DNA of 32,000 nucleotides from Idiomarina loihiensis L2TR (GTDB taxonomy: Bacteria > Pseudomonadota > Gammaproteobacteria > Enterobacterales > Alteromonadaceae), in NCBI RefSeq assembly GCF_000008465.1, contig NC_006512.1, positions 2,760,001 to 2,792,000 of the forward strand, written 5' to 3'. Below are positions 5,783 through 23,755 of this stretch, piece after piece. Position 1 is the first letter of the stretch, and every line of letters begins with the position of its first letter. The translations under genes were made by a program, and so were the position numbers. Under the pieces are notes generated by a model, which searched no databases, was not told where the DNA came from, and saw only the letters and a program-made list of their open reading frames with translations.

Positions 5783-7015
5783 TCACTGGGCTGAATTAAT
5801 GATGCAATCTAAAAGTATGTTACAACCAGCTTCCACGTCATGCCAGTGCGACCACTCATCGGGTGCGTGACTGACCCCATTTACAGACGGGATAAATATT
5901 AGCCCGGACTCCGTAATCTCTGTAAAAAATTGAGCATCGTGTCCTGCGCCACTGGGCATTTTAAGACACGAATAATTTCGAGCTTTAGCTTTCTCTTCTA
6001 TTTGTTTTGTCAGCTTTTCTGAACAGGCCTGAGGGTTCAGCCAACTCACTTGCTCGTATTCAAACTTCAAACGGTGCTTACGCGCTATTGCTGATAACGC
6101 CTTGTTACAGGAGTCTGCCAGCTCTTTCATTACATCGTTACTCATGTCGCGACCAACAATAGTAAACACCGCTTCACCCGGCACGGTGTGCGGACTCCCG
6201 GGCTTCAAGTCCACTTTGCCCACGGTAATACGCGTTTTATCGGTACCGTCTTCAGCAATAATGCGCTCAATTTCGTGAGCAAAATCTGCCAGCCCCATAA
6301 AAGCGTCACTGCGCATATTCATAGGAGCAGTACCAGCGTGGTCGGCTTTACCTTTTAAGTGAACTATCCATTTAAACACCCCGGAAATGCCTTCCACTGC
6401 GCCAATGGTTATCTCTTTCTGAAACAGCACCGGTCCTTGTTCAATGTGCAGTTCGTAAAAGGCTTTTAGCCGCTCCGGAGGCCAGGCAGCGTCCAGTGCA
6501 TCCATAACGTCCATGCCATGGGCGGCCATTGCGTCCTTTAAGTACACATTATCAGCATCGTGAGCCGACATAAGCCAGTCCGGATTCAGCACACCTGCAA
6601 TAGCCTGAGAACCCATCATGCCGCCAAATCGGCCTTCCTCTTCGGCAGTACCAACAACCCATACAGGATGCGCTAATTTCACGTCATTTTCTTTGATCGA
6701 GCGCAAAACTTCGAAGCCCGCTAACACTCCGAGTGCGCCATCGAAAATCCCCCCGGCGGGAACAGTATCTAGATGTGAACCGGTAAGAATAGCTGGTTTT
6801 TTGCTGTAGTCGCCAATACCAAAAAACACATTACCGGCACCATCCATAAAGGTCTTGAAACCTTCGGCTTTAGCTTGCTCCATCATCCAGCGGCGGGCTT
6901 CCATATCGGCATCGGTAAAACCCCAACGGTACATACCATGATCGGTCTCGTTATAACCAATTTTGGATAGCTCCAGCACAGATTTTTTTAAGCGGTCAGC
7001 ATTAATACTCAGCAT
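5783..7015 (-). CDS. M20-family Zn-dependent amidohydrolase (allantoate amidohydrolase / N-carbamoyl-L-amino-acid hydrolase type)
   Basis: GSHLDTVPAGGIFDGALGV motif and overall M20/AmaB-like layout. I place the start at MLSINADRL (ATG complement 7013-7015) behind AAGGAGG (complement of 7021-7027). The track's longer ORF (to 7123) reads through the ahpD terminator. Confidence 0.8.
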   Translation of the reverse strand: MLSINADRLKKSVLELSKIGYNETDHGMYRWGFTDADMEARRWMMEQAKAEGFKTFMDGAGNVFFGIGDYSKKPAILTGSHLDTVPAGGIFDGALGVLAGFEVLRSIKENDVKLAHPVWVVGTAEEEGRFGGMMGSQAIAGVLNPDWLMSAHDADNVYLKDAMAAHGMDVMDALDAAWPPERLKAFYELHIEQGPVLFQKEITIGAVEGISGVFKWIVHLKGKADHAGTAPMNMRSDAFMGLADFAHEIERIIAEDGTDKTRITVGKVDLKPGSPHTVPGEAVFTIVGRDMSNDVMKELADSCNKALSAIARKHRLKFEYEQVSWLNPQACSEKLTKQIEEKAKARNYSCLKMPSGAGHDAQFFTEITESGLIFIPSVNGVSHAPDEWSHWHDVEAGCNILLDCIINSAQ

Positions 7016-11009: not shown

Positions 11010-12143
11010 ATGTTCAATCCAAAGTTTGTTTTAACGGCAATATTGGCAGCTTCCGTAAGCGTGACGGCCACAGCCGAAGATGTCGAAACCGAACGCCATA
11101 AAGTTAGTGTCAGCACACTTGCGGATGGCTTTACTAACCCCTGGGGTATGACTTTTCTTCCTGACAAAAGCATTTTAGTTACCGAGCGCTCCGGCGACAT
11201 CTACTGGGTATCCGCCGACGGCAGTTATCGCGAAAAGATAAGCGGAACACCAGAGGTGGTAGCACAAGGCCAGGGTGGTATGCTGGATATTACCACTGAC
11301 CCTGACTTTGCTGAGAATAACTGGGTTTATATTAGCTACTCTGAAGCAGCACAGGACGGTGGGAAAGGGAATAGTACGGCCGTTATGCGGGCGAAACTTG
11401 ACGATAAAGAATTTACTGAGCAGGAAGTTGTTTTCCGTCAGGCACCTAAGTATGAAAGCAATAACCACTTTGGTTCCCGGTTAGTCTTTTCACCTGAAGG
11501 GCACTTATACATTACTTTAGGTGACCGCTATTCACGTATGGATGACGCACAGACACTGGATAACCATCACGGTAAAGTGATACGCATATGGCCTGATGGC
11601 AGCATCCCGAAAGACAACCCTTTTGTTAACAATGATAACGCTCTGGACGAAATCTGGTCTTACGGTCACCGCAATGTGCAGGGTGCCGATATTCATCCTG
11701 AAACGGGCGAGCTCTGGACTGTTGAACATGGCCCACAAGGCGGTGACGAAGTAAACATTCCGGAAGCTGGCAAAAATTACGGTTGGCCAGAAATTACTTA
11801 TGGTGTTGATTATGGCGGTGGCATTATCAGCGAAGACGCAGTCAAAGAAGGTATGGAGCAACCCTTCTATTACTGGGTACCCTCTATTGCCACGGCCGGA
11901 GCCACATTTTACAACGGCGATGCGTTTCCTGAGTGGAAAGGCGATTTCTTTGTCGCAGCTTTGAAAAGTTCACTGGTTGCTCGCCTGGACTTGTATGAAG
12001 GTCGTATGATGCATGAAGAGCGTTTATTTGAAGATGCTGTTGAAGCTCGTATTCGCGACATTAACCAAGGCCCTGACGGTTACCTCTATTTATTAACCGA
12101 CCAGCCTGACGGTGCCATCATTCAAATAAAACCGGCGGATTAA
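11010..12143 (+). CDS. yliI: Periplasmic PQQ-dependent aldose/sugar dehydrogenase (YliI/Asd type)
   Basis: Signal peptide (..SVSVTATA/ED). Colinear blocks match recalled E. coli YliI: PWGMTFLPD, GQGGMLD, NHFGSRLVF, IWSYGHRN.QG, EHGPQGGDE.N, GKNYGWP, IRD...GPDGYLYLLTD. AAGGAGAG SD upstream. Confidence 0.85.
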   Translation: MFNPKFVLTAILAASVSVTATAEDVETERHKVSVSTLADGFTNPWGMTFLPDKSILVTERSGDIYWVSADGSYREKISGTPEVVAQGQGGMLDITTDPDFAENNWVYISYSEAAQDGGKGNSTAVMRAKLDDKEFTEQEVVFRQAPKYESNNHFGSRLVFSPEGHLYITLGDRYSRMDDAQTLDNHHGKVIRIWPDGSIPKDNPFVNNDNALDEIWSYGHRNVQGADIHPETGELWTVEHGPQGGDEVNIPEAGKNYGWPEITYGVDYGGGIISEDAVKEGMEQPFYYWVPSIATAGATFYNGDAFPEWKGDFFVAALKSSLVARLDLYEGRMMHEERLFEDAVEARIRDINQGPDGYLYLLTDQPDGAIIQIKPAD

Positions 12144-12144
12144 T

Positions 12145-14178
12145 ATGTTGTACTCAGCTGTATTAAGAAAACTCACTTACACGGGGCTGCCTTTATTGGC
12201 GGCCTCTTTCGTTGTTCACTCCGCAGAAGTAGATGAAACCGTTGTTGTTACAGCGACACAAAGCGAGACGCCCTGGTTGACTACTGCGGCCAGTATCGAC
12301 CGCGTGAGCGTGGAAAACACCTTACCTTCTATGAAGATTGATGCTGGCGATGCCTTAGCCGGGGTGGCGGGCATTCAGGCTGACAACCGTTACAACTACG
12401 CACAGGATACACGCCTGGTGGTTCGGGGCTTTGGCTCGCGTGCGGCCTTTGGAGTAAGGGGTTTGCAGTTAAATGTCGACGGCATTCCGTTATCTATGCC
12501 CGACGGACAGGCACAAACTTCGAGCATTTTTCTCGACAGCATTGATTCGCTGGAAGTATTGCGCGGTCCATTAGCAACGCTGTACGGTAACTCCGGCGGT
12601 GGTGTGGTTGAATGGTTCAGCCGCAAGCCAACAGAAACCGCGTTGGAATGGGGTGGACAGTTCAGCGAAAATGACACTCAGCGGTACAATATTAATGCCC
12701 AGTGGGCAACCAACACCAATCAGCTGCAAATTTTAGCCTCAGATTTTCAGACCGACGGCCCGCGCAGGCATAACTCAGCCGAGCGCCAACAGCAGGCGAT
12801 ACGCTGGTATCATCAGTGGGACGAGCAGAACCGCTTTGTTATTCGTTACGACAATAACGATGCGCCATTATTGCAAGACCCCAGCGCACTAACGCCCGAA
12901 GACTGGCGCGAAGACCCAACTCAGACAGTACAACGGGCAATTGATTTCAACACGCGGAAAGATATTCACCACCGTCAGGGGTCTTTCAGCTGGTTTCATG
13001 AGAGCAACAATGGTGAGGGGTTACTCTCGCTGTGGCAGGGTGACCGCGATATAGAGCAGTTTCTGCCTTTTGCCGGTGACGACACAACAAGCTCGGGGGC
13101 CGTCATTGATGTCTCTCGTCAATTTGAAGGTGCTCATGCGCGCTGGCGTCAACGCGGAGTTAACTGGTCAGCAACCGTGGGAGCGCAATTAGAACGCCAG
13201 CAGGATCATCGCTTTGGTTATGTGAATGACAGCGGTGAAAAAGGTGACTTGCGCCGCAACGAATTCAACTGGATTGAAAATGCATCAGCTTATCTACGTT
13301 TTCAGTGGCAGTTATCGGAAGAGCTTTCAGCAACCGGCGGAGTTCGTTACAGCGACATCAATTATGAGGTAGAAGACTACTTTACCGATCTGGATAACTC
13401 CGATGACAGCGGCAGCAGCGACTTTAGTGAGACCACCGCAGCTGTTTCAGTTACCTGGCAGTTTCTGCCTACCTCGGCGACTTATCTGAGCATCGGGCAG
13501 GGATTTGAAACACCGACACTGACTGAGCTGGCATACCGAAATCAGGGCTCGGGCCTGAACCGCGAACTGGGTCCGTCCACGAATGATCAGTGGGAATGGG
13601 GTATCAAACACCAACTACCACAAGACTGGCGACTGCATTTCGCGTTCTTCGGTATTAAAAGCGAGGACGAAATACTGGTGGATCAGTCAAACGACGGTCG
13701 CACAACCTACCGCAACGCGTCGGAAACCTCGCGCGAAGGTGCTGAGCTCAGTATTAACGGCGCACTGACCCAGCAGTTAGATTTACTACTGTCATACAGT
13801 TACATCGATGCCACCTTTGATAATGGTCCGTTACAGGGGAATCAGTTGCCCGGCGTAGCAAAAAGTCAGGGCTATCTGCGTCTTAACTGGCAACCCACAG
13901 AGCAGTGGCTAGTTCAGTTAGCCGGCCAGTACCGTAACGAGACACCGGTTAATGATGCAAATGATACCTTTGCCCCGTCTTACACGACCTGGGATATTGC
14001 TGTAAGCCGCGATTGGCAATGGGCTAAGAGCGAGCTGGATGTGTGGGTACGGGTTGATAACATTACCGACAAAGACTACGTAGGAGCTGTTGTGGTTAAT
14101 CAGGGCAGTGGACGTTCATTTGAGCCCGCCGTAGGCCGGCAGGCAAGCGTCGGCATTAGCTGGCGCCGACGCTTTTAA
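12145..14178 (+). CDS. TonB-dependent receptor, YncD/PqqU-like (candidate PQQ importer)
   Basis: Signal peptide, plug domain and a beta-barrel ending in an aromatic residue (..ISWRRRF). Blocks NYAQD..L.VRGFGSR...G.RG..L.VDGIP..MPDGQ.QTS and DN..DK.YVG.V.VN...GR..EP..GR resemble my recollection of E. coli YncD. The ATG lies 1 nt after the dehydrogenase stop. Confidence 0.8.
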   Translation: MLYSAVLRKLTYTGLPLLAASFVVHSAEVDETVVVTATQSETPWLTTAASIDRVSVENTLPSMKIDAGDALAGVAGIQADNRYNYAQDTRLVVRGFGSRAAFGVRGLQLNVDGIPLSMPDGQAQTSSIFLDSIDSLEVLRGPLATLYGNSGGGVVEWFSRKPTETALEWGGQFSENDTQRYNINAQWATNTNQLQILASDFQTDGPRRHNSAERQQQAIRWYHQWDEQNRFVIRYDNNDAPLLQDPSALTPEDWREDPTQTVQRAIDFNTRKDIHHRQGSFSWFHESNNGEGLLSLWQGDRDIEQFLPFAGDDTTSSGAVIDVSRQFEGAHARWRQRGVNWSATVGAQLERQQDHRFGYVNDSGEKGDLRRNEFNWIENASAYLRFQWQLSEELSATGGVRYSDINYEVEDYFTDLDNSDDSGSSDFSETTAAVSVTWQFLPTSATYLSIGQGFETPTLTELAYRNQGSGLNRELGPSTNDQWEWGIKHQLPQDWRLHFAFFGIKSEDEILVDQSNDGRTTYRNASETSREGAELSINGALTQQLDLLLSYSYIDATFDNGPLQGNQLPGVAKSQGYLRLNWQPTEQWLVQLAGQYRNETPVNDANDTFAPSYTTWDIAVSRDWQWAKSELDVWVRVDNITDKDYVGAVVVNQGSGRSFEPAVGRQASVGISWRRRF

Positions 14179-14183
14179 GCCAA

Positions 14184-14870
14184 TTACAGGCTGGCTCTTA
14201 ACACATCGAGCAGGCGCTGTGCCGTCTGCTCAGATGAACCGGGATTCTGACCGGTAATTAACATACCGTCCTGAACGGCATATGCCTGCCAGTCATCCAC
14301 CTTACGATAATGGCCGCCTTTGGCGGTCAACTCGTCTTCCAGCAAGAACGGAACTACATTGGTCAGTTCTACTGCAGCCTCTTCGCTGTTACTAAAGCCA
14401 GTTACCGTGCGTCCCTGAACAATCGGGTCACCACTTGGCGATTTAGCATTTAACAACACGGCTGGGGCATGACAGACCGCAGCAACGGGTTTACCCTGAC
14501 TCCAGAAATGCTCAATCAGCTTAATTGAATGCTCGTTATTGGTTAAATCCCACAATGGTCCGTGACCACCCGGATAGAAAATTGCGTCGAAACCTTCCGG
14601 ATCAACTTCATCCAGCTTACAGGTCGTTTCTAATTTGTGCTGAGCCGTCTCATCTTTATCAAAGCGTTCTGTTGCTTCGGTTTGTGCATCTGGTGTGGTG
14701 CTGTTTGGATCAATCGGTGGCTTGCCACCCTTAGGCGATGCCAGAGTCACGTCCACACCGGAATCCGTAAAAACATAGTACGGAGCAGCAAACTCTTCTA
14801 CCCAGAAACCCGTTTTATGGTCTGTGTCACCAAGCTTATCGTGTGAGGTTAATACCATTAATACTTTCAC
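14184..14870 (-). CDS. DJ-1/PfpI family (class I glutamine amidotransferase-like) protein
   Basis: 228 aa with the nucleophile elbow AAVCHAP and the YPGGHG block. GTG start at 14870 with AGGAG 7 nt upstream. Confidence 0.8.
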   Translation of the reverse strand: MKVLMVLTSHDKLGDTDHKTGFWVEEFAAPYYVFTDSGVDVTLASPKGGKPPIDPNSTTPDAQTEATERFDKDETAQHKLETTCKLDEVDPEGFDAIFYPGGHGPLWDLTNNEHSIKLIEHFWSQGKPVAAVCHAPAVLLNAKSPSGDPIVQGRTVTGFSNSEEAAVELTNVVPFLLEDELTAKGGHYRKVDDWQAYAVQDGMLITGQNPGSSEQTAQRLLDVLRASL

Positions 14871-14933: not shown

Positions 14934-16274
14934 TCACTCGCCATGCTGTTCCAGCCAACGGTATAGAGTGCGCCTTGTGACTCCGAGAATTTCTGCCGCT
15001 TTAGATTTATTCCCTTCGGCATGCGTCAATACCTTACGAATGTACTGATTCTGATATTCATCCAGAGTCGGCCACTCGGTGCCATAATCCACGTCGGGTT
15101 CATGCTCACTATCCAAAATTCTTTGCGGTAAATCTTCAACCGCTATTTTATCGTCTCTGGAGAAAGTAAAGGCACGTTCAATAGCATTCTGTAATTCACG
15201 TACGTTGCCCGGAAAGCGATAGCAATAAAGCTGCTCCAGTGCAGCCGGAGAAATGCTGCGAACCGGTTTATCACTGTTTTTCTGCAGCTGCTGTAGGAAA
15301 AAATTAGCTAAACGCTCAATATCTTCTCCCCGTTCCCGCAGCGGTGGTACTCGTAAACTAAAGGTTTCCAGACGGTAAAATAAATCCTGCCGGAAGCGCC
15401 CATCTTCTACCTGTTGCTCTAAGTTCTGGTGGGTTGCAGCCAGGATCCGGACATTCACCGTTTCTTCTTCGTCGCTGCCCACGGCGCGAATCGTGCCTTC
15501 CTGCAATACACGTAGCAGTTTAGCCTGTAACGCCATTGGCATTTCACCAATTTCGTCCAGCAACAAAGTACCGCCGTCGGCCTGCTTAAGCAGGCCCTGA
15601 CGCTTTTTCTGAGCACCGGTAAATGCGCCAGCTGTGTGACCAAAGAATTCGCTTTCCATTAACTCGGCTGGAATGCCCGCACAGTTCACCGCCTGGAAGC
15701 TCTGCTCAGCGCGGTCACTTAACTGATGCAGTGCCTTTGCCACCAACTCTTTACCCGTACCGCTTTCACCGGTAATTAAGACGCTGCCGTCTGCCGGAGC
15801 TATGCGCTCTATCTGGTCATACAGTTTACGCATTGACGGGCTTTGGCCGACTAAGCCCCCGGGGCCCTTTTGTTGCTGACGATACCGTTTAAGCTCACGC
15901 TGCAGTGACCGATGTTCTAATATCCGTTTTACGCTAAGCAATAGGTGTTCAACATCCAGCGGCTTGGTTAGAAAGTCATCGGCTCCTTGTTTTAAAGCAT
16001 CAACCGCCTGATCAACCGTACCAAATGCGGTAATCAATAACAGCGCAGGGGAGTTCTCTTCATTTTTTAAACTTTCCAGTAAAGACAAGCCTGACAATCC
16101 CGGTAAGCGAATATCGCTGATAACCAAATCCAATGGCGTTACCGATTTTTTAAAGGCTTCAATACTTCCCCACGCGGTGACTTTATAGCCCTCGGCCTCC
16201 AGCTCTTCAACCAGCAACTCCTGCAGAGCCGGATCATCCTCAATAACGCCTATCATGGCTTTTGCTGCGGTCAT
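14934..16274 (-). CDS. Sigma-54-dependent response regulator (NtrC/ZraR class)
   Basis: Receiver domain (DLVISDIRLPG), AAA+ Walker A GESGTGKE, sigma-54 contact loop GAFTGA, and a C-terminal Fis-type HTH (AAEILGVTRRTLYRWL). Its ATG overlaps the kinase stop (ATGA). Confidence 0.9.
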   Translation of the reverse strand: MTAAKAMIGVIEDDPALQELLVEELEAEGYKVTAWGSIEAFKKSVTPLDLVISDIRLPGLSGLSLLESLKNEENSPALLLITAFGTVDQAVDALKQGADDFLTKPLDVEHLLLSVKRILEHRSLQRELKRYRQQQKGPGGLVGQSPSMRKLYDQIERIAPADGSVLITGESGTGKELVAKALHQLSDRAEQSFQAVNCAGIPAELMESEFFGHTAGAFTGAQKKRQGLLKQADGGTLLLDEIGEMPMALQAKLLRVLQEGTIRAVGSDEEETVNVRILAATHQNLEQQVEDGRFRQDLFYRLETFSLRVPPLRERGEDIERLANFFLQQLQKNSDKPVRSISPAALEQLYCYRFPGNVRELQNAIERAFTFSRDDKIAVEDLPQRILDSEHEPDVDYGTEWPTLDEYQNQYIRKVLTHAEGNKSKAAEILGVTRRTLYRWLEQHGE

Positions 16275-17758
16275 TCACTACCTCCTTTAATAACGGCTTG
16301 CCGAAGGCATTGCGCAGGTAAACTCAAGGTAACCCGACAGCCACCATTGGGGTTGTTTGTTAAAGACAACTCTCCGTTATGGTCATTCAATACGTGTTTC
16401 ACTATGGTTAAACCAAGCCCGGTGCCTTTTCCCTGAGGTTTATTAGTTTCAAAAGGCTGCAAAGCTTTATCTTTCATAGACTCGGGCAACCCCTCACCGT
16501 CGTCATCAACGGTGATAATGACACCTTCACCGGCGTACTCAGCTGCCACCACAACTTCCGATTCAGCTGCCTGCAAACCATTGCGAAGAACATTAACCAA
16601 CGCCAGTTCCAGTCGCTTGACATCTACTTTCAGAATAACGTCGACAAGTTCCTTAATCACCACTTTGGCCGAGCCTTTATCCTGCTCAAACTCTATGCTG
16701 GTCATGGCTGTTGCTATCAGGTCACGTAAAGAAATAGCTTCGCGCTGCTGTACCGGCGTGCGGGAGAAGGCCAACAGCTGGTTTACCAGCCCGGTTAACC
16801 GCTGCACCTGGCCTCTTACCGCTTTTAGCTGGCGCTGACTGTCTTCGTCTTTATGGTTGCGTAATAAGCGGCTGGCGCGTCCGTCAATAACGGTAAGCGG
16901 AGCACCTAGCTCGTGCGCAACACCACTAGCAACGCTACCAATAGCCGCCATTTTTTCCTGTTCTCGCAAAGCTTGCTGCAGAGAGGCCTCGTGCTCTCGG
17001 CGCTGCTCCAGCTCTTGCTCAGCCTCGGTGATACTATCGAGCATTCGGTTGAAACCCTGAGCAACCTCCTGCAACTCTGACGGGCCAGCCGGTGTAACCC
17101 GTGTACTTCGGTGCCCTTCAGCTACCCGCAACATGGCATCCTTAAGTGCCACCACATGCCGTCCAACACCGCGGTAATGACCAAACACCAGCACCGCAAT
17201 AGTAATTAAACCAAACGCCCCCCAACTGAGCCAGGCGTATTGGCTTAACGTTTCAAAGGACTCATCAAAATCGCTGGCCCGCCGGTTTATCTGTAATAAA
17301 CCAATAATGCGACCACCGCGATCAACAATAGGCAGGAATTGAGAGAAGACATCACGTCCCTCAACCCGTCGGTAATCGTCTTGCTTTATTCCGGTCTGAA
17401 CGGTTTGCAGTGCTAGCTGACTATTGCTTAAGTCGGTTTCAGTAATGCCCGCTTCCGCTACCTGCTGGCCATACACATTATAAACCGACGCACCATAAAC
17501 CCGACCAATATTAAACACCGAATCCAGGTTAGCCTGTACTGTGGACAAATCGTTATTCAACAAGGCGTCACTTATAGGCAAGCTAATGGCTCGGCCGAGA
17601 AGCTCTAAGTCACTTTTTAGCCGTTCATTGGCCTCATCAGAGGCAACCTGTAACCCCACGCTTATTGCCACGCCGGAAATTAACAACATAGGCATAACGA
17701 CATAAACCAGAAGCCGCCTTTGCAGACTGGATAGTGGCCAACTGTATCTTTTTGTCAC
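16271..17758 (-). CDS. Sensor histidine kinase (two TM helices, periplasmic domain, HAMP, HisKA, HATPase)
   Basis: 495 aa with the H-box VAHELGAPLTVI and the G-boxes DDDGEGL and GTGLGL. GTG start at 17758 with AGGAGG 4 nt upstream. Confidence 0.9.
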   Translation of the reverse strand: MTKRYSWPLSSLQRRLLVYVVMPMLLISGVAISVGLQVASDEANERLKSDLELLGRAISLPISDALLNNDLSTVQANLDSVFNIGRVYGASVYNVYGQQVAEAGITETDLSNSQLALQTVQTGIKQDDYRRVEGRDVFSQFLPIVDRGGRIIGLLQINRRASDFDESFETLSQYAWLSWGAFGLITIAVLVFGHYRGVGRHVVALKDAMLRVAEGHRSTRVTPAGPSELQEVAQGFNRMLDSITEAEQELEQRREHEASLQQALREQEKMAAIGSVASGVAHELGAPLTVIDGRASRLLRNHKDEDSQRQLKAVRGQVQRLTGLVNQLLAFSRTPVQQREAISLRDLIATAMTSIEFEQDKGSAKVVIKELVDVILKVDVKRLELALVNVLRNGLQAAESEVVVAAEYAGEGVIITVDDDGEGLPESMKDKALQPFETNKPQGKGTGLGLTIVKHVLNDHNGELSLTNNPNGGCRVTLSLPAQCLRQAVIKGGSE

Positions 17759-17773
17759 ACGACCTCCTTTAAC

Positions 17774-17792
17774 TGTGTACTAAGGATACACA
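17774..17792. promoter_or_regulatory. Inverted repeat TGTGTA-N7-TACACA, candidate enhancer (UAS) for the sigma-54 activator
   Basis: Perfect 6-bp arms centred about 82 bp upstream of the -24 GG of the sigma-54 promoter, in the divergent intergenic region. The function is an inference. Confidence 0.3.
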
Positions 17793-17863
17793 TTTTTTAG
17801 TTGGTTTTCTCGGCGCAAACTTCGCAAGAACAAAAAGCTATAAAAATCAGTTAATTGAAAAGT

Positions 17864-17879
17864 TGGCACAGTCTTCGCT
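17864..17879 (+). promoter_or_regulatory. Sigma-54 (-24/-12) promoter TGGCAC-AGTCT-TCGCT
   Basis: GG (17865-17866) and GC (17877-17878) have the canonical spacing of TGGCAC-N5-TTGCW. The site is about 48 nt upstream of the DUF4168 ATG and next to a sigma-54-dependent regulator gene. Confidence 0.7.
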
Positions 17880-17926
17880 TTAGTTAGAGCGTAAGTAAAA
17901 CTGATAAATTCATCTAGGAGATTATC

Positions 17927-18307
17927 ATGCAAAAGACAATTATCGCATTAGCAACAGTATTCGCACTGGGTAGCACAGCAGCAATGGCTCAAGAGCAACA
18001 AGCTCAAGATCCAATGGCGCAGCAACAGCAGCAAACTCAGGAAATTTCTGAAGGCATGCTGGTTAAGTTTGTAACCGCTATGGAAGATGTTCAGGGCGTT
18101 ACTGAAAAATACCGTGACCAGTTCCAGGAAGCTGAAAATCAGGAAGAAGCTCGTGAAATTCAACAGTCTGCACAGGAAGAAATGATTGCAGCAGTTGAAG
18201 ACGCAGGTCTAACTCCACAAGAATACAACATGATTATTCAGCAAGCGCAAAACGACGAAGAGCTTCGTGGCCGCTTAGAAGAGCTGACGGGTGACGAAAA
18301 CTCTTAA
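17927..18307 (+). CDS. Small secreted Q/E-rich helical protein, DUF4168-like
   Basis: 126 aa with signal peptide MQKTIIALATVFALGSTAAMA/QE. The mature part is highly Gln/Glu rich, with I.EGML.KF..A...VQ....Y and GLTPQEYN.I..QAQ.D.ELR blocks that I recognise as the DUF4168 pattern. AGGAGA SD; strong terminator downstream. Confidence 0.7.
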   Translation: MQKTIIALATVFALGSTAAMAQEQQAQDPMAQQQQQTQEISEGMLVKFVTAMEDVQGVTEKYRDQFQEAENQEEAREIQQSAQEEMIAAVEDAGLTPQEYNMIIQQAQNDEELRGRLEELTGDENS

Positions 18308-18332
18308 TCGATTTACTCGATTGTAGGTTAAG

Positions 18333-18358
18333 AAGGCAGCCTTTTGGCTGCCTTTTTT
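18333..18358 (+). terminator. Rho-independent terminator
   Basis: AAGGCAGCC-TTTT-GGCTGCCTT followed by TTTTTT, 26 nt after the stop of the DUF4168 gene. Confidence 0.9.
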
Positions 18359-18426: not shown

Positions 18427-20085
18427 GTGAAAGCATCCGATTTATTCGTAAAAGCACTTGAAAACGAGGGTGTGAAGTACATTTTCGGCATTCCCGGCGA
18501 AGAAAACCTGGACTTACTTGAGTCGCTCTCAAAATCCAGCATTGAGCTAATTTTAACCCGCCACGAACAGGGCGCAGGTTTCATGGCCGCCACTTATGGT
18601 CGCCTGACCGGCAAACCCGGGGTGTGCCTTTCCACCTTAGGCCCGGGGGCAACCAACTTGGTTACACCGGTGGCCTACGCGCAACTCGGCGCTATGCCTA
18701 TGGTTGTCATTACTGGACAAAAACCCATAAAGGAACGTCATCAGGGTCAATTCCAGATCATTGATGTGGTCGACATGATGACTCCCATTACCAAATACAC
18801 TCAGGCGATTATTAGCGCCAGCAGTATTCCGGCGCACATCCGTGAGGCTTTTCGTCGCGCTGAAGATGAACGCCCCGGCGCTTCTCACCTGGAGCTCTCA
18901 GATGATATCAGTCGCGAAGAGGTCAGCAGCCTTCCGATAGAAGCCAGTCATTCGCGCCGCCCCATTACCGAGCATAAATCGGTCCGCCACGTGCTGGAAC
19001 TACTGCGCGAAGCAAAACACCCGGTACTGTTGATAGGGGCTGCGGCCAATCGGAAAATTACAGCAAAAATGCTGCGCGCATTTGTCGATAAAACCGGTAT
19101 TCCTTTTATTACCACGCAAATGGGTAAGGGTGTTATTAACGAAGACCACCCACGCTGGCTTGGTAATGCGGCGGTTTCCGACGGCGATTACCCGCACCGC
19201 GCCATCGAAAAATCTGACCTGATTCTTAATGTCGGTCACGACGTGGTGGAAAAGCCGCCCTTTATGATGAAAACCGGCGACAACGACAACCGTAAAGTGG
19301 TGCACATTAACTTTCAGGGTGCCCAGGTTGATTCGGTTTACTTTCCTCATGCCAGCATGATCGGCGATATTGGTAACAGTATCTGGCAGTTAAAAGAAGG
19401 GATTGAGCCGCAAAGTCACTGGGATTTCAACTTTATGCTGAAAGTTCGCGATCACATGCGCGACCATACCGATGAAGGCGCTCATGACGGCAGCTTTCCG
19501 GTGTTACCCCAGCGTCTGGTAGAAGATGTGCGTGAAGCTATGCCAGATGACGGTGTCATTGCACTGGATAACGGCATCTACAAAATTTGGTTTGCACGTA
19601 ATTACCCGGCTCGTCAGCCAAATACGGTACTACTGGATAATGCCCTTGCCTCAATGGGTGCAGGCTTACCATCGGCCATGGCCGCGAAGCTGGTTAATCC
19701 GGAAAAGAAAGTCATGGCAATATGCGGTGACGGCGGTTTTATGATGAACTCTCAGGAGCTTGAAACTGCTGTGCGCATGGGGCTGGATATCGTTGTCGTT
19801 ATCTTAAATGACAGCGGCTATGGCATGATCAAGTGGAAACAGCAGCATATGAAACTGAGCGACTACGGCTTAGATTTCAATAACCCGGATTTTGTGAAAT
19901 ATGCAGAGTCTTACGGCGCTAACGGTTACCGTTTAGATAAAACCGAAAACTTGATACCGCTGTTAAAAGACTGCCTGAACAAACCCGGCGTACACCTTAT
20001 TGATGTACCCGTGAACTATTCACAAAATGACCGACTGCTGAACGAGGAAATCCCCGAACGCAGCCGCGCCATTAAAGATATTTAA
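18427..20085 (+). CDS. Thiamine-diphosphate enzyme, acetolactate synthase (AlsS-like, catabolic type)
   Basis: 552 aa. N-terminal GIPGEENLDL, and the TPP-binding motif GDGGFMMNSQELETAVRMGLDIVVVILNDSGYG. GTG start with AGGAGA 7 nt upstream. No small regulatory subunit gene is adjacent. Confidence 0.85.
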   Translation: MKASDLFVKALENEGVKYIFGIPGEENLDLLESLSKSSIELILTRHEQGAGFMAATYGRLTGKPGVCLSTLGPGATNLVTPVAYAQLGAMPMVVITGQKPIKERHQGQFQIIDVVDMMTPITKYTQAIISASSIPAHIREAFRRAEDERPGASHLELSDDISREEVSSLPIEASHSRRPITEHKSVRHVLELLREAKHPVLLIGAAANRKITAKMLRAFVDKTGIPFITTQMGKGVINEDHPRWLGNAAVSDGDYPHRAIEKSDLILNVGHDVVEKPPFMMKTGDNDNRKVVHINFQGAQVDSVYFPHASMIGDIGNSIWQLKEGIEPQSHWDFNFMLKVRDHMRDHTDEGAHDGSFPVLPQRLVEDVREAMPDDGVIALDNGIYKIWFARNYPARQPNTVLLDNALASMGAGLPSAMAAKLVNPEKKVMAICGDGGFMMNSQELETAVRMGLDIVVVILNDSGYGMIKWKQQHMKLSDYGLDFNNPDFVKYAESYGANGYRLDKTENLIPLLKDCLNKPGVHLIDVPVNYSQNDRLLNEEIPERSRAIKDI

Positions 20086-20666: not shown

Positions 20667-21545
20667 TTAATGGTCTCGACAAGCTTCGTCAGGGTATTCC
20701 AGTTCAATGGTGGTATGAGCTAATTCAAACGCTGCCAGCTGCTGTGATATTTGCTGCTTTAACTGTGCGCGCTCTGAACATTCCAGTTCTTTTGATACCA
20801 CAATATGCGCGGTTAATACATGACGCTCGCCATCCAACGACCAAAAATGCAAATGATGGGCGTCATCAACCAGTTCCAGCGAGGTCAATTGCTCACGTAT
20901 TTTCCGGTACACTTCGAGGTCTGGTGAGGCCTGAACAAAGAGCTTAACGGTAGAACCCAAGTGACGAAGAACGTTAACCAGAATGAACAAAGTGAAGCCA
21001 ATGGAAAGCAGAGGGTCAAGAATAGGCCAGTCGACAAAGATTAAGATAATCGACACGATTAAAACAGCAACCCAGCCCAGAACGTCCTCTAGTAAGTGCC
21101 AGTTAAGTACGCGTTCGTTTAACGATTTACCATGAGACAATTTAAACGCCGCATAACCATTCACAATAACGCCAAATACCGCCAGTAACGCCATACCCTC
21201 CGCCATCGGCATTACCGGGTTCCATAAACGGGGAATGGCTTCAAATAAAATCCAGATTGAGCCTGCAGTCAGTACAACCGCGTTAATAAAAGCGCCAACC
21301 AGAGATAAGCGTTGATAGCCATAGGTAAAGGTCTGCGTGGCATCTTTACGACTGAATTTATCCAGCAACCAGGCCATACCAATAGAAATGCTGTCGCCGA
21401 GATCGTGCACCGCGTCAGCTAAAATGGCCGTACTATTGGTTAATATCCCACCGATAAATTCAATAACGGTAAAGCACAGATTAAGGAAAAACGCCCAACC
21501 AATTCGCTCCGATGAGCTCTCGTGGTGATGATGGTGATGGTGCAT
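20667..21545 (-). CDS. Cation diffusion facilitator (CzcD/ZitB-type) metal efflux transporter with an N-terminal His7 tract
   Basis: Six TM helices with the CDF metal-site motifs HDLGD (TM2) and HLLED (TM5), plus a C-terminal cytoplasmic domain. I place the start at MHHHHHHHESS (ATG complement 21543-21545) with AAGGAG 5 nt upstream. The track ORF starts 27 nt earlier. Confidence 0.9.
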   Translation of the reverse strand: MHHHHHHHESSSERIGWAFFLNLCFTVIEFIGGILTNSTAILADAVHDLGDSISIGMAWLLDKFSRKDATQTFTYGYQRLSLVGAFINAVVLTAGSIWILFEAIPRLWNPVMPMAEGMALLAVFGVIVNGYAAFKLSHGKSLNERVLNWHLLEDVLGWVAVLIVSIILIFVDWPILDPLLSIGFTLFILVNVLRHLGSTVKLFVQASPDLEVYRKIREQLTSLELVDDAHHLHFWSLDGERHVLTAHIVVSKELECSERAQLKQQISQQLAAFELAHTTIELEYPDEACRDH

Positions 21546-21621
21546 AAAGCTCCTTATTACCAATGTTAGCACCCATTCATCTTAATACTAAGCGAGTCAG
21601 AATTCGACATCAGAGATTTAT

Positions 21622-21636
21622 TGTTATAATATAACA
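21622..21636. promoter_or_regulatory. Zur box TGTTATAATATAACA overlapping the -10 hexamer of the TonB-receptor promoter
   Basis: 15-bp palindrome (symmetric apart from the central base) identical to the core of the gammaproteobacterial Zur operator (..ATGTTATAATATAACAT..). It contains TATAAT (21625-21630), with a possible -35 TTCGAC at 21603-21608 (16-nt spacer). It lies 38 nt upstream of the receptor ATG and 77 nt upstream of the CDF ATG. Confidence 0.8.
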
Positions 21637-21673
21637 TTACACTTAAACACAATAACTGAGTTGTCTTGGACCC

Positions 21674-23755
21674 ATGAAATACCAAACAGTTACCTTAAGT
21701 TTACTCTCTATCATAAGTATGGGCTCGTTTGCGCAAGAACAGGAGTCTTTCGAACACATTGAAGTCAATTATCGTCAGGCTTACCGCGGAGATGTTCCTG
21801 TTTCAGAAATTCCTCAGGCAATTACTACGCTGGACCGCAGCCTGGTGGATGATATTAATATTTCCCGTTTTCGCGATATTTTGCTGTTTTCTCCGTCAAT
21901 TGCTTTGCAAAACGACGGCGGTAACTTATGGGACAGCTACTCCATGCGCGGGTTTCCGGGCAACGAAAATGTACCTACTGGTTATTTAGTTAATGGTTTC
22001 TCCAGTGGTCGCGGATTCGGCGGGCATCGGGACGTTTCCAATATTGAGTACGTAGAAGTTCTGAAAGGCCCGGGCTCTGCACTGTATGGCCGCTCGGACC
22101 CGGGAGGGGTAATTAATGTAGTTACTCGTAAACCACAATACGCGCCGGAAGGATACTTAAAGACTTCCCTTGGCAGCGATGACCGCTATCGTCTTGAAGG
22201 AGACTACACCAGCGGCCTTAGCGATAGCCTCGCCATGCGGATAAACGGTGCAATACAGGACGACGACAGTTTCCGCGATCATGTCAGCAGCAAGAAAAAG
22301 GTTATTAACCCGTCGCTGCGCTGGCAACTGGATAAAGACACCTCCATACTTTATTCGTTTGAGTTCATGCAGCAGGAGCAGTTGTTTGACCGCGGCATTG
22401 TCGTTTTAGATAACAACATTAAAACTGTTCCACGAGAACGCTTTCTGGGCGAACCAAGTGATGACCCTACTAAAATCAATTCACAAGGCCACCAGTTAAC
22501 CTTTGAGCACTATCTGCAAAACGACTGGTTTTTAACCGGTGGTATTAATGCCAGAAGCACAAAGTTGGACGGCTACTCGTCAGATGCCGAGCTATCCGGC
22601 TCGCGCCAGAAACTATTTGAAGACGGCCGCACTCTGACACGTCAGCATCGCCGTCGTGACTATGACTCCGATGATTTATCAGTAAGGTTGGAATTAAGCG
22701 GTAACACAGAGCTGTTCGGTATGACCCATCACTTATTGATGGGAGCCGACGCATACCGTTATGACTTATACACCTTATTGGCTCGCGCCCGTCCGGAGCC
22801 AGGCACTTACGAGCTGGATATTTTTAACCCTCAGTATGGCGCAGCTAAACCAGAACTCCAGACTCAATACATTAACGATGAGAATCAAAAGGGCTTCGGT
22901 TTGTACGTGCAGGATCAACTTGAGCTTAATGACCAGTGGCATCTACTGCTGGGTTTAAGGCTGGATCAGTACACACAGGAAACCTTAGAGCTGGTTTCAG
23001 GTACGGAATCTGAACAGGATGACAGCCGGGTTAGCCCACGCGTTGCACTGAGCTACTTGCCAACGGATAACTTAACCCTGTATGCCAGTTATTCAGAAGG
23101 CTTTGTTCCTATTAGCGGCACCGACTTCGAAGGTCAGGGTTTTGACCCGGAAGAGAGCGACTCAGTAGAGCTGGGCATGAAATATTCCGCTCATGGCTTT
23201 CGGTTAAATGCGGCTGTTTTCGATGCCACCAAAACCAACATTCTTACGGATGACCCGGCTCACCCAGGCTATCCAGCCACGCTGGGCGCAGCAACCAGTA
23301 GAGGGTTTGAAATAGAAGGGGGCATGTCGCTAGGCAGTTACACCGATTTACAGGTTGCCTACAGCTACATAGACAGTGAAACAAAAAATGATATTACCGT
23401 TTACGACTGGGGCGTCAATGTCCCTGCCGGTAGTGACCTGGTAAATATTCCTCAGAATACCTTTAACGCCATGGTTAAACACGACCTCAGACACTGGCAA
23501 ATTAATGCTGATATAGGGCTTACTGCTCGCTATGTGGATGACCGTTTAGGCGCTACGGTCGATCAGTCGTATCGTCTGCCCAGTTATCAGGTGTTTGATC
23601 TGTTCTATACACACCGGTTAACCGACAACACTGAATTACAGATAAACGTTGATAACCTTTTTGACGAGTATTACATGTCGAACGCCTACTCTGCGCTTTG
23701 GACAACACCAGGAGCCCCAAGACAGTTTTCAGTGAGCCTGACTTATGAATTCTAA
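21674..23755 (+). CDS. TonB-dependent outer-membrane receptor (Zur-box controlled; ZnuD-like role inferred)
   Basis: 693 aa with a signal peptide (..SMGSFA/QE), plug domain (VEVLKGPGSALYGRSDPGGVINVVT) and a barrel ending ..SLTYEF. Confidence 0.9.
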   Translation: MKYQTVTLSLLSIISMGSFAQEQESFEHIEVNYRQAYRGDVPVSEIPQAITTLDRSLVDDINISRFRDILLFSPSIALQNDGGNLWDSYSMRGFPGNENVPTGYLVNGFSSGRGFGGHRDVSNIEYVEVLKGPGSALYGRSDPGGVINVVTRKPQYAPEGYLKTSLGSDDRYRLEGDYTSGLSDSLAMRINGAIQDDDSFRDHVSSKKKVINPSLRWQLDKDTSILYSFEFMQQEQLFDRGIVVLDNNIKTVPRERFLGEPSDDPTKINSQGHQLTFEHYLQNDWFLTGGINARSTKLDGYSSDAELSGSRQKLFEDGRTLTRQHRRRDYDSDDLSVRLELSGNTELFGMTHHLLMGADAYRYDLYTLLARARPEPGTYELDIFNPQYGAAKPELQTQYINDENQKGFGLYVQDQLELNDQWHLLLGLRLDQYTQETLELVSGTESEQDDSRVSPRVALSYLPTDNLTLYASYSEGFVPISGTDFEGQGFDPEESDSVELGMKYSAHGFRLNAAVFDATKTNILTDDPAHPGYPATLGAATSRGFEIEGGMSLGSYTDLQVAYSYIDSETKNDITVYDWGVNVPAGSDLVNIPQNTFNAMVKHDLRHWQINADIGLTARYVDDRLGATVDQSYRLPSYQVFDLFYTHRLTDNTELQINVDNLFDEYYMSNAYSALWTTPGAPRQFSVSLTYEF

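Follow-up and report, generated by a model that had tools for sequence, protein, structure and literature searches.

The stretch of DNA analysed here, referred to throughout as the window, comprises 32,000 nucleotides of Idiomarina loihiensis L2TR (assembly GCF_000008465.1, contig NC_006512.1, positions 2,760,001 to 2,792,000 of the forward strand), and all coordinates are counted from its first letter. In its middle part a sensor kinase gene and a sigma-54-dependent response regulator gene on the minus strand diverge from a gene on the plus strand for a small protein of the DUF4168 family, and an intergenic region of 168 bp (17759-17926) separates the kinase gene from the DUF4168 gene. The features of this locus, which are the subject of this analysis, are as follows.

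14934 to 16274, minus strand: sigma-54-dependent response regulator (NtrC-type enhancer-binding protein), 446 aa, assigned from Pfam and motif reading
16271 to 17758, minus strand: sensor histidine kinase, 495 aa, GTG start, upstream of the regulator gene, assigned from Pfam
17743 to 17759, minus strand: second candidate regulator site (site B), TGTGACAAAAAGATACA, from a pattern search with one mismatch
17774 to 17790, no strand assigned: candidate upstream activator site (site A), a 17-bp palindrome, TGTGTActaagGATACA, read in the sequence and from its conservation; written as TGTGTA-N7-TACACA it reaches 17792
17845 to 17857, plus strand: site resembling that of integration host factor (IHF), AATCAGTTAATTG, with one mismatch to the consensus WATCAANNNNTTR and preceded by an A/T-rich tract
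17864 to 17879, plus strand: predicted sigma-54 promoter TGGCAC-agtct-TCGCT (-24 GG, -12 GC), read in the sequence and conserved in orthologous loci
17916 to 17920, plus strand: ribosome-binding site AGGAG before the ATG at 17927
17927 to 18307, plus strand: DUF4168 gene, 126 aa, predicted single-gene transcript, Pfam PF13767
18326 to 18362, plus strand: intrinsic terminator hairpin, from folding, followed by a U run

An earlier annotation made from the letters alone (the sequence-only reading) had placed overlapping kinase and sigma-54 regulator genes on the minus strand, with a GAFTGA motif in the regulator, and both genes are present where it put them. The stop codon of the kinase and the start codon of the regulator overlap as ATGA, read as ...GAATGACC... 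in the window. The 446-aa protein possesses all the features that define an NtrC-type response regulator, namely a phospho-acceptor aspartate (D54 in the REC domain), an AAA+ domain with Walker A (GESGTGKE, 169-176), GAFTGA (216-221) and Walker B (DEIGE, at 240), and a C-terminal helix-turn-helix of the Fis type. Its Pfam matches are to Response_reg (2.1e-22), Sigma54_activat (5.9e-71), HTH_8 (1.8e-11) and AAA_lid, and its best solved relatives are NtrC-family proteins; on its sequence it is a generic member of that family. The kinase has HAMP, HisKA (H282) and HATPase_c domains by Pfam, and two membrane helices predicted from its hydrophobic segments bracket a periplasmic domain of about 140 aa. 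Neither protein reaches any of the NCBIfam equivalog cutoffs. The kinase scores 120.9 bits against the ZraS model (cutoff 479), with only residues 254-487, the catalytic core, aligned, and the regulator scores 353 bits against ZraR (cutoff 760), 362 against GlrR (763), 422 against NtrC (558.6) and 408 against AtoC (714). With these cutoffs missed, orthology to ZraSR, AtoSC, NtrBC or GlrKR was ruled out.

The product of the plus-strand gene had been described from sequence alone as a single small secreted Q/E-rich helical protein followed by a strong terminator, and had been assigned to DUF4168; both statements were upheld. The hidden Markov model (HMM) of the Pfam family (PF13767) matches residues 43-116 at E 2.7e-16 with a score of 60.8 bits, the cutoff being 25.8. 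Residues 1-21 form a signal-like peptide ending in AMA, before QEQQ, and a Q-rich disordered stretch follows. The mature protein would have 105 aa (12 kDa, isoelectric point 4.05). Q makes up 20% of it and E 18%, acidic residues outnumber basic ones by 25 to 6, and His, Cys and Trp are absent. An AlphaFold model based on 79 relatives has a disordered N-terminus and a four-helix domain at residues 42-125 (helices 42-67, 72-92, 97-109 and 111-125), with a predicted local distance difference test score (pLDDT) above 95 over residues 41-120. The terminator, which was found by folding and had not been called by a simple terminator scan, has a hairpin of -22.8 kcal/mol (z = -5.55, with 0 of 200 shuffles as stable), and the next gene begins at 18427.

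The family to which this protein belongs is large (1,648 clusters at 50% identity, E up to 0.001). The closest proteins, 94% identical, are from Idiomarina, and genome loci of Idiomarina species match at up to 98%. All 79 aligned relatives match DUF4168 and no other meaningful Pfam family; weak matches of 45 of the 79 to the NOG1 N-terminal helical domain (best E 1e-5) probably reflect helical or compositional similarity. The JGI label of an Idiomarina DUF4168 protein, flagellar basal body P-ring protein, is unsupported here and looks like a mis-annotation. The literature searched made no mention of DUF4168 or PF13767, and a search for Idiomarina together with RpoN and a two-component system found nothing relevant.

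Whether kinase, regulator and DUF4168 belong together was examined from both sides of the intergenic region. From the DUF4168 side, with one genome per species and 58 loci in all, an orthologous kinase and regulator adjoin DUF4168 in 37, and these include all the Idiomarina, Pseudidiomarina and Aliidiomarina loci as well as Saccharospirillum, four halophilic Pseudomonas and a gammaproteobacterial metagenome-assembled genome (MAG). From the kinase side, a metagenome scan that used the sensor-domain alignment alone gave 80 loci, with kinases of 38-99% identity, and in 74 of these a profile search recognized a divergent upstream open reading frame for DUF4168 (E no higher than about 1e-31). Of the six remaining contigs, five end within 450 nt upstream of the kinase and the sixth carries a remnant of DUF4168, its first 21 codons. 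For this kinase the partnership with DUF4168 is therefore near-obligate, and the recurrence of the divergent unit in other genomes, on which the sequence-only reading had made its proposal depend, is borne out by both scans. Six more distant DUF4168 proteins were also examined singly. Marinobacter segnicrescens has the same divergent trio, and one metagenome contig has the N-terminus of a kinase divergent from DUF4168 at the contig end. In Thioalkalivibrio denitrificans kinase, regulator and DUF4168 are all on one strand, and linkage therefore survives rearrangement. The trio is thus common to several families of bacteria, whereas the wider block that includes genes for a glucose/sorbosone dehydrogenase (GSDH), a TonB receptor and DJ-1/PfpI is found only within the Idiomarinaceae; as their synteny is confined to that family the DJ-1/PfpI and TonB-receptor genes were ruled out as members of the unit.

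Loci in which the trio is incomplete or more loosely arranged are also informative. Two Marinobacter loci (L064 and L059) have DUF4168 proteins that are 80% identical and the same EamA and DctP neighbours, and the one without the kinase-regulator pair is also without the -24/-12 element, which makes the two loci a natural contrast by deletion or insertion. DUF4168 copies that lie away from the kinase still have promoter-like elements in Saccharospirillum, Pseudomonas saliphila and P. profundi. In the two Pseudomonas species DUF4168 is 2.7 kb from the kinase and is preceded by TGGCAC with a non-canonical -12 and by a near-palindrome. In Saccharospirillum (L028:6193-7267) DUF4168 is duplicated in tandem. 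A -24/-12 match and palindrome-like sequence precede both copies, and only the palindrome of the first copy fits TGT-N11-ACA exactly. Two DUF4168 copies also occur in one metagenome locus (L137).

The intergenic region contains the elements that would connect the regulator to DUF4168. In the predicted promoter the GG and GC are 10 nt apart, 10 of the 11 specified positions fit TGGCAC-N5-TTGCW, and the element lies 48 nt upstream of the ATG, giving a predicted transcription start at about 17890 and a leader of about 37 nt. It is the only -24/-12 match in the window. All Idiomarinaceae genome loci, and Saccharospirillum too, have a -24/-12 element at a distance of 50-80 nt before the start of DUF4168, and the element also occurs in a gammaproteobacterial MAG and one Pseudomonas MAG; in the metagenome set TGGCA[CT] with T-G at -14/-13 is present in 73 of 74 loci. 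The perfect inverted repeat TGTGTA-N7-TACACA noted earlier at 17774-17792 is indeed there, and proves to be the local form of a conserved palindrome, TGT-N11-ACA, which is the core of site A and is centred about 108 bp upstream of the predicted start. This palindrome has a constant position, immediately before the ribosome-binding site of the kinase gene, throughout the Idiomarinaceae loci, and it is present in 69 of the 74 metagenome loci. Its arms co-vary by clade (TGTGTA/GATACA, TGTATC/GATACA, TGTGAC/TATACA, TGTTTA/GATACA and TGTGGC/GCCACA), and symmetry that is kept while the sequence drifts is what would be expected of the site of a dimeric DNA-binding protein. Site B overlaps the kinase start codon, with its centre 31 bp from that of site A and about 139 bp upstream of the predicted start, and is found in most Idiomarina and three Pseudidiomarina loci. 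Among 33 Idiomarinaceae genome loci of about 14 kb each, a sigma-54 match and a palindrome lie within 220 bp of each other solely at DUF4168; fourteen other sigma-54-like matches in the same loci have no palindrome, and no second pair of promoter and palindrome was found in the window. Sequence and comparison thus show what the module is made of, how it is laid out, and that kinase, regulator, palindrome, -24 element and DUF4168 stay linked across the loci compared.

The IHF-like site had been regarded with doubt in the sequence-only reading because it is so close to the -24 element. The site is present, and in 19 of 21 Idiomarina loci the distance from the motif WWTCA-N5-TTR to the TGGCA downstream of it is exactly 19 nt, which answers that doubt in part. 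The offset is shifted in three Pseudidiomarina loci, and in the other Idiomarinaceae, including Aliidiomarina and part of Pseudidiomarina, the motif could not be detected. An IHF site is plausible in Idiomarina, though it would be no universal part of the module. An Rfam scan of the window gave no match.

We read the locus as a dedicated three-gene signalling module with DUF4168 as its envelope effector, and would give this reading as a whole a probability of about 0.7. Its parts differ in strength. The regulatory link that runs from kinase to regulator to sigma-54 promoter to DUF4168 is very probable, and the comparative evidence for it, drawn from the loci described above, is unusually clean. 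That DUF4168 would serve as a periplasmic stress-response effector which protects or buffers the envelope, and may also feed back on the kinase, in a manner analogous to ZraP, Spy and CpxP with no relationship to them, is argued from context and in our estimate falls somewhat short of even odds. The sequence of events proposed is that the membrane kinase would sense an extracytoplasmic cue through a PDC/Cache-like periplasmic domain and phosphorylate D54 of the NtrC-type regulator, which would then assemble on one or both of the TGT-N11-ACA palindromes of 17 bp that lie some 108 and 139 bp before the start. In Idiomarina a bend of the IHF type would probably bring the regulator to RNA polymerase-sigma-54 at TGGCAC-N5-TCGCT, and the promoter would be opened by ATP hydrolysis. 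The sole local product would be a single-gene mRNA for the small, very acidic, Q/E-rich four-helix DUF4168 protein, exported to the periplasm. As the palindromes cover the ribosome-binding site and start codon of the kinase gene, binding of the regulator may also, by occlusion, damp transcription of its own operon. The phosphorelay, the dependence on sigma-54 in vivo, the export of the protein and its role are what we infer by reference to the established workings of NtrC-type systems.

A number of observations weigh against this reading. The promoter had been called good in the sequence-only reading; it is present, correctly placed and conserved, but as a match taken alone it is not statistically significant within 32 kb, where the pattern with one mismatch is expected 1.38 times by chance and occurred at least once in 77 of 100 shuffles. 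The weight of the match comes instead from its position, the chance expectation in the 168-bp intergenic region on the correct strand being roughly 0.004, and from its conservation in orthologous loci. Among the 74 metagenome loci the canonical GC at -12 is found in only 31. In most of the distant clades the C at -12, normally near-invariant, gives way to another base (TGGA, TGTA, TGAA, TTGAT), with no change in TGGCAC, in the spacing or in the T-G at -14/-13; sigma-54 dependence is therefore less certain in those clades, the window being unaffected. Site B lies inside coding sequence, and its conservation is therefore ambiguous as it may reflect the protein. For the kinase operon a promoter scan found no convincing sigma-70 or sigma-54 promoter; on the minus strand of the intergenic region there is no GG-N10-GC at a usable position, and the single -24/-12 match of the window is on the plus strand. 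In three of the six distant DUF4168 loci examined singly there is no two-component system nearby. The structure of the sensor domain is predicted by an AlphaFold model of only moderate confidence (pLDDT 70, from a shallow alignment of five close sequences). The topology of the model is of the PDC/Cache type, and Foldseek pairs it with sensor domains from WalK (E 5e-7, TM 0.76), KinD, CitA and DctB; the domain has no match among PDB sequences, its only Pfam matches are to GAPES3 and SMP_2, both below threshold, and a homologue search with it yielded only four close fragments. Finally, no relative of known function could be detected for DUF4168 by structure or by sequence, and the proposed effector role therefore derives entirely from context: a Foldseek search of the PDB with the model gave no match at E <1 (50 matches listed of 83 with E <10), and a profile search of the PDB with the DUF4168 alignment gave nothing significant, the best match being to HP0242 (E 0.12).

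About 1.4 matches to the promoter pattern would arise by chance in 32 kb, and this would also fit an account in which the gene order is simply inherited and unregulated, with the -24/-12 match and the inverted repeat both there by chance; the wider gene block is indeed syntenic within the Idiomarinaceae too. Such an account is hardly credible: linkage of the trio persists across several bacterial families, with different neighbours and a changed gene order; the palindrome remains symmetric despite its changing sequence; and the locus that lacks kinase and regulator lacks the promoter as well.

A more serious question is what DUF4168 does once it has reached the periplasm. CpxP shuts off CpxA and ZraP shuts off ZraS, and with these precedents DUF4168 might be mainly a negative-feedback accessory that binds the periplasmic PDC domain of the kinase and stops signalling without any protective role of its own. 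The sensor domains lend themselves to such a view, as those of all linked kinases align well and share the invariant residues R56, Y88-G89-A90, S139, F141, P143, Q156, R159 and D163-F164; this strong conservation, the near-obligate linkage of DUF4168 to one particular sensor domain and its position as the single dedicated output all count in favour of the feedback view. An orthologous DUF4168 nevertheless persists in the Marinobacter locus that has neither kinase nor regulator, and other DUF4168 genes are found beside extracytoplasmic function (ECF) sigma/anti-sigma pairs or with no sensor nearby. A role mainly in feedback is in our judgement unlikely, although it could coexist with the effector reading. 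A possible double role, both as effector and as feedback inhibitor, is a working analogy drawn from CpxP/CpxA-CpxR and Spy.

It is also conceivable that the two-component system mainly controls genes elsewhere, for example in transport or metabolism, and that DUF4168 is a minor or incidental target. NtrC-type regulators often control several operons, and the analysis of this genome covered 32 kb. In P. saliphila (L037:4421-5760) and P. profundi (L039) two extra small secreted low-complexity proteins are encoded between kinase and DUF4168; they have no Pfam match, their signal peptide (MNTLKxLTxAVAFA) is nearly the same as that of DUF4168, and a palindrome lies beside the kinase start in these loci. 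The P. saliphila arrangement, with two further secreted proteins and the palindrome by the kinase, would suit a regulon broader than one gene. On the other side DUF4168 is the one constant partner over 38-99% kinase divergence while all other neighbours vary, and no other pair of promoter and palindrome was found in the window or in the 33 loci of 14 kb. We therefore consider it improbable that the principal targets lie elsewhere and retain DUF4168 as the likely dedicated output of the module.

Many uncharacterised two-component systems have a small periplasmic partner. The closest known parallel in layout had been identified from sequence alone as ZraPSR. In E. coli and Salmonella the genes for a kinase that has its sensor in the periplasm and for an NtrC-type activator are likewise divergent from a gene for a small helical periplasmic protein, with a sigma-54 promoter and regulator sites in the shared intergenic region; ZraR drives divergent sigma-54 promoters, including one for zraSR, and ZraP is a zinc-dependent periplasmic chaperone (PMC4987338). 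The likeness holds for the gene layout and does not extend further. DUF4168 is unrelated to ZraP (a probability of 5% by hhalign, with the signal peptide alone aligned) and has no His or Cys for metal binding of the Zn type; the Idiomarina kinase and regulator are far below the equivalog cutoffs of ZraS and ZraR; and the Idiomarina kinase operon, unlike zraSR (PMC4987338), is without a sigma-54 promoter.

Membership of DUF4168 in the CpxP/Spy/ZraP (LTXXQ) group, the exclusion of which had been called for at the outset, was ruled out by HMM, by profile comparison and by predicted fold. There is no Pfam match to LTXXQ or Metal_resist for the window protein (E up to 1), and neither appears in the list for the 79 relatives, which names 25 families, each matched by at least two members. 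Comparison of the DUF4168 alignment with E. coli Spy by hhalign gave a probability of 0.4%, with only the signal peptides aligned; the ZraP and Spy reference sequences were checked against PDB 3LAY and 3OEO. The LTXXQ motif is absent at the level of the family, the window protein having LTPQE at residues 95-99 and the consensus being GL-x-V-x-EYN with no conserved Q. The resemblance to Spy and ZraP that might have emerged from a predicted structure did not materialize: the 50 Foldseek matches listed, every one of which has E >1, include no structure of Spy, CpxP or ZraP. A monomer model cannot display the dimeric cradle, and a remote resemblance in fold is to that extent not fully excluded.

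The metal link that is part of ZraPSR enters the DUF4168 circuit only as a rival explanation, in which the kinase would sense a metal ion and the acidic DUF4168 protein would bind or buffer periplasmic cations. The composition of the mature protein (25 acidic and 6 basic residues, isoelectric point 4.05) is compatible with this, all the hosts found are marine or salt-adapted, and a gene for a CDF cation-efflux protein lies 2.4 kb off. PDC/Cache-type sensors, however, usually bind small organic ligands, and that is the type of fold predicted here; no His or Cys is conserved in the periplasmic domain in the alignment of linked kinases; DUF4168 itself is without either residue and without similarity to ZraP; and the CDF gene (minus strand), which together with a second TonB-dependent receptor gene divergent from it occupies 20667-23755, is outside the conserved unit. 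A true metal or cation circuit is accordingly a poor prospect, and an envelope-response module of another kind remains the reading that we prefer.

Other known systems share single aspects of the module. Like CpxP beside CpxA-CpxR, and like Spy, DUF4168 is a small helical, presumably periplasmic protein that adjoins or is controlled by a two-component system, which here may be of the envelope-stress kind; unlike the Idiomarina regulator, CpxR is of the OmpR type and acts at sigma-70 promoters. GlrK-GlrR (QseE-QseF) has the same regulator architecture, belongs to the same class of mechanism and has an upstream TGT...ACA dyad, the GlrR site being listed as TGTC-N10-GACA (PMC4987338). The spacing of that dyad differs by one base from the one found here and the output in Idiomarina is a secreted protein, not small RNAs. 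From sequence, then, the module resembles a circuit of the ZraPSR or CpxP type in outline and is not a member of those families.

DUF4168 is also found beside a quite different type of regulator. In four alphaproteobacterial loci (L033, L047, L051 and L052, with DUF4168 near 6870-7000) it is divergent from genes for an ECF sigma factor and a putative anti-sigma factor of about 260-310 aa, the latter assignment being weak (zf-HC2, E 3e-4, in one locus only). Motifs of the form GGAAC-N16-17-GTC lie upstream of DUF4168 in all four, and GGAACTTTT is directed at the sigma gene in three of them. Here DUF4168 occupies the same divergent target position beside an envelope-signalling regulator, with GGAAC-type motifs, although the regulator is of a wholly different class, the promoter is of another type altogether, and the ECF arrangement is absent from the window. 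That two unrelated extracytoplasmic signalling systems appear to have the same kind of divergent target supports a role in the envelope, short of proof. On this evidence DUF4168 might be a new periplasmic envelope-response family, an analogue of CpxP/Spy/ZraP without evolutionary relationship to them that was recruited independently as the dedicated output, and possibly the feedback partner, of sigma-54 two-component systems in marine gammaproteobacteria and of ECF sigma/anti-sigma pairs in alphaproteobacteria; we offer this as a tentative proposal, with the balance of probability somewhat against it.

The type of circuit described here is already known, and what is distinctive is that it is built around an uncharacterised protein family. 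The locus gives DUF4168 a concrete setting, in which a single kinase, sigma-54 activator, defined operator with its promoter and output gene recur together in many marine bacteria. With it comes a first regulatory clue, a functional handle on the family that does not itself show what the protein does. Should the output prove to protect the envelope or to modulate the kinase, the task performed by CpxP, Spy and ZraP would have been solved independently a second time; should its role be unrelated, a well-delimited orphan two-component regulon would still have been defined. The compact promoter and operator could also act as a clean reporter with which to find the signal.

Some features of the neighbourhood may be recorded although they are not part of the unit. 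Directly downstream of the regulator gene in the Idiomarinaceae is the DJ-1/PfpI gene (14184-14870 in the window), with a gap of 63 nt and no clear terminator, and in Pseudomonas sp. WN033 (L038:3061-3744) a Glyoxalase/VOC gene takes its place. The two families are unrelated and both are tied to glyoxalase-type chemistry, which is a weak hint only, and neither is conserved elsewhere. In some close Idiomarina relatives (L001:7597-10191; L002, L003, L005, L006 and L009) an extra gene for an 864-aa TonB-dependent receptor, absent from the window, lies between DUF4168 and a TPP-enzyme gene. Genes for GSDH and a TonB-dependent receptor are near DUF4168 both in the Idiomarinaceae (window 11010-14178) and in Thiohalophilus (L061:5590-8882), which has no kinase or regulator within 5 kb; the GSDH proteins of the two groups are 46% identical, and their common proximity to DUF4168 could be a coincidence.

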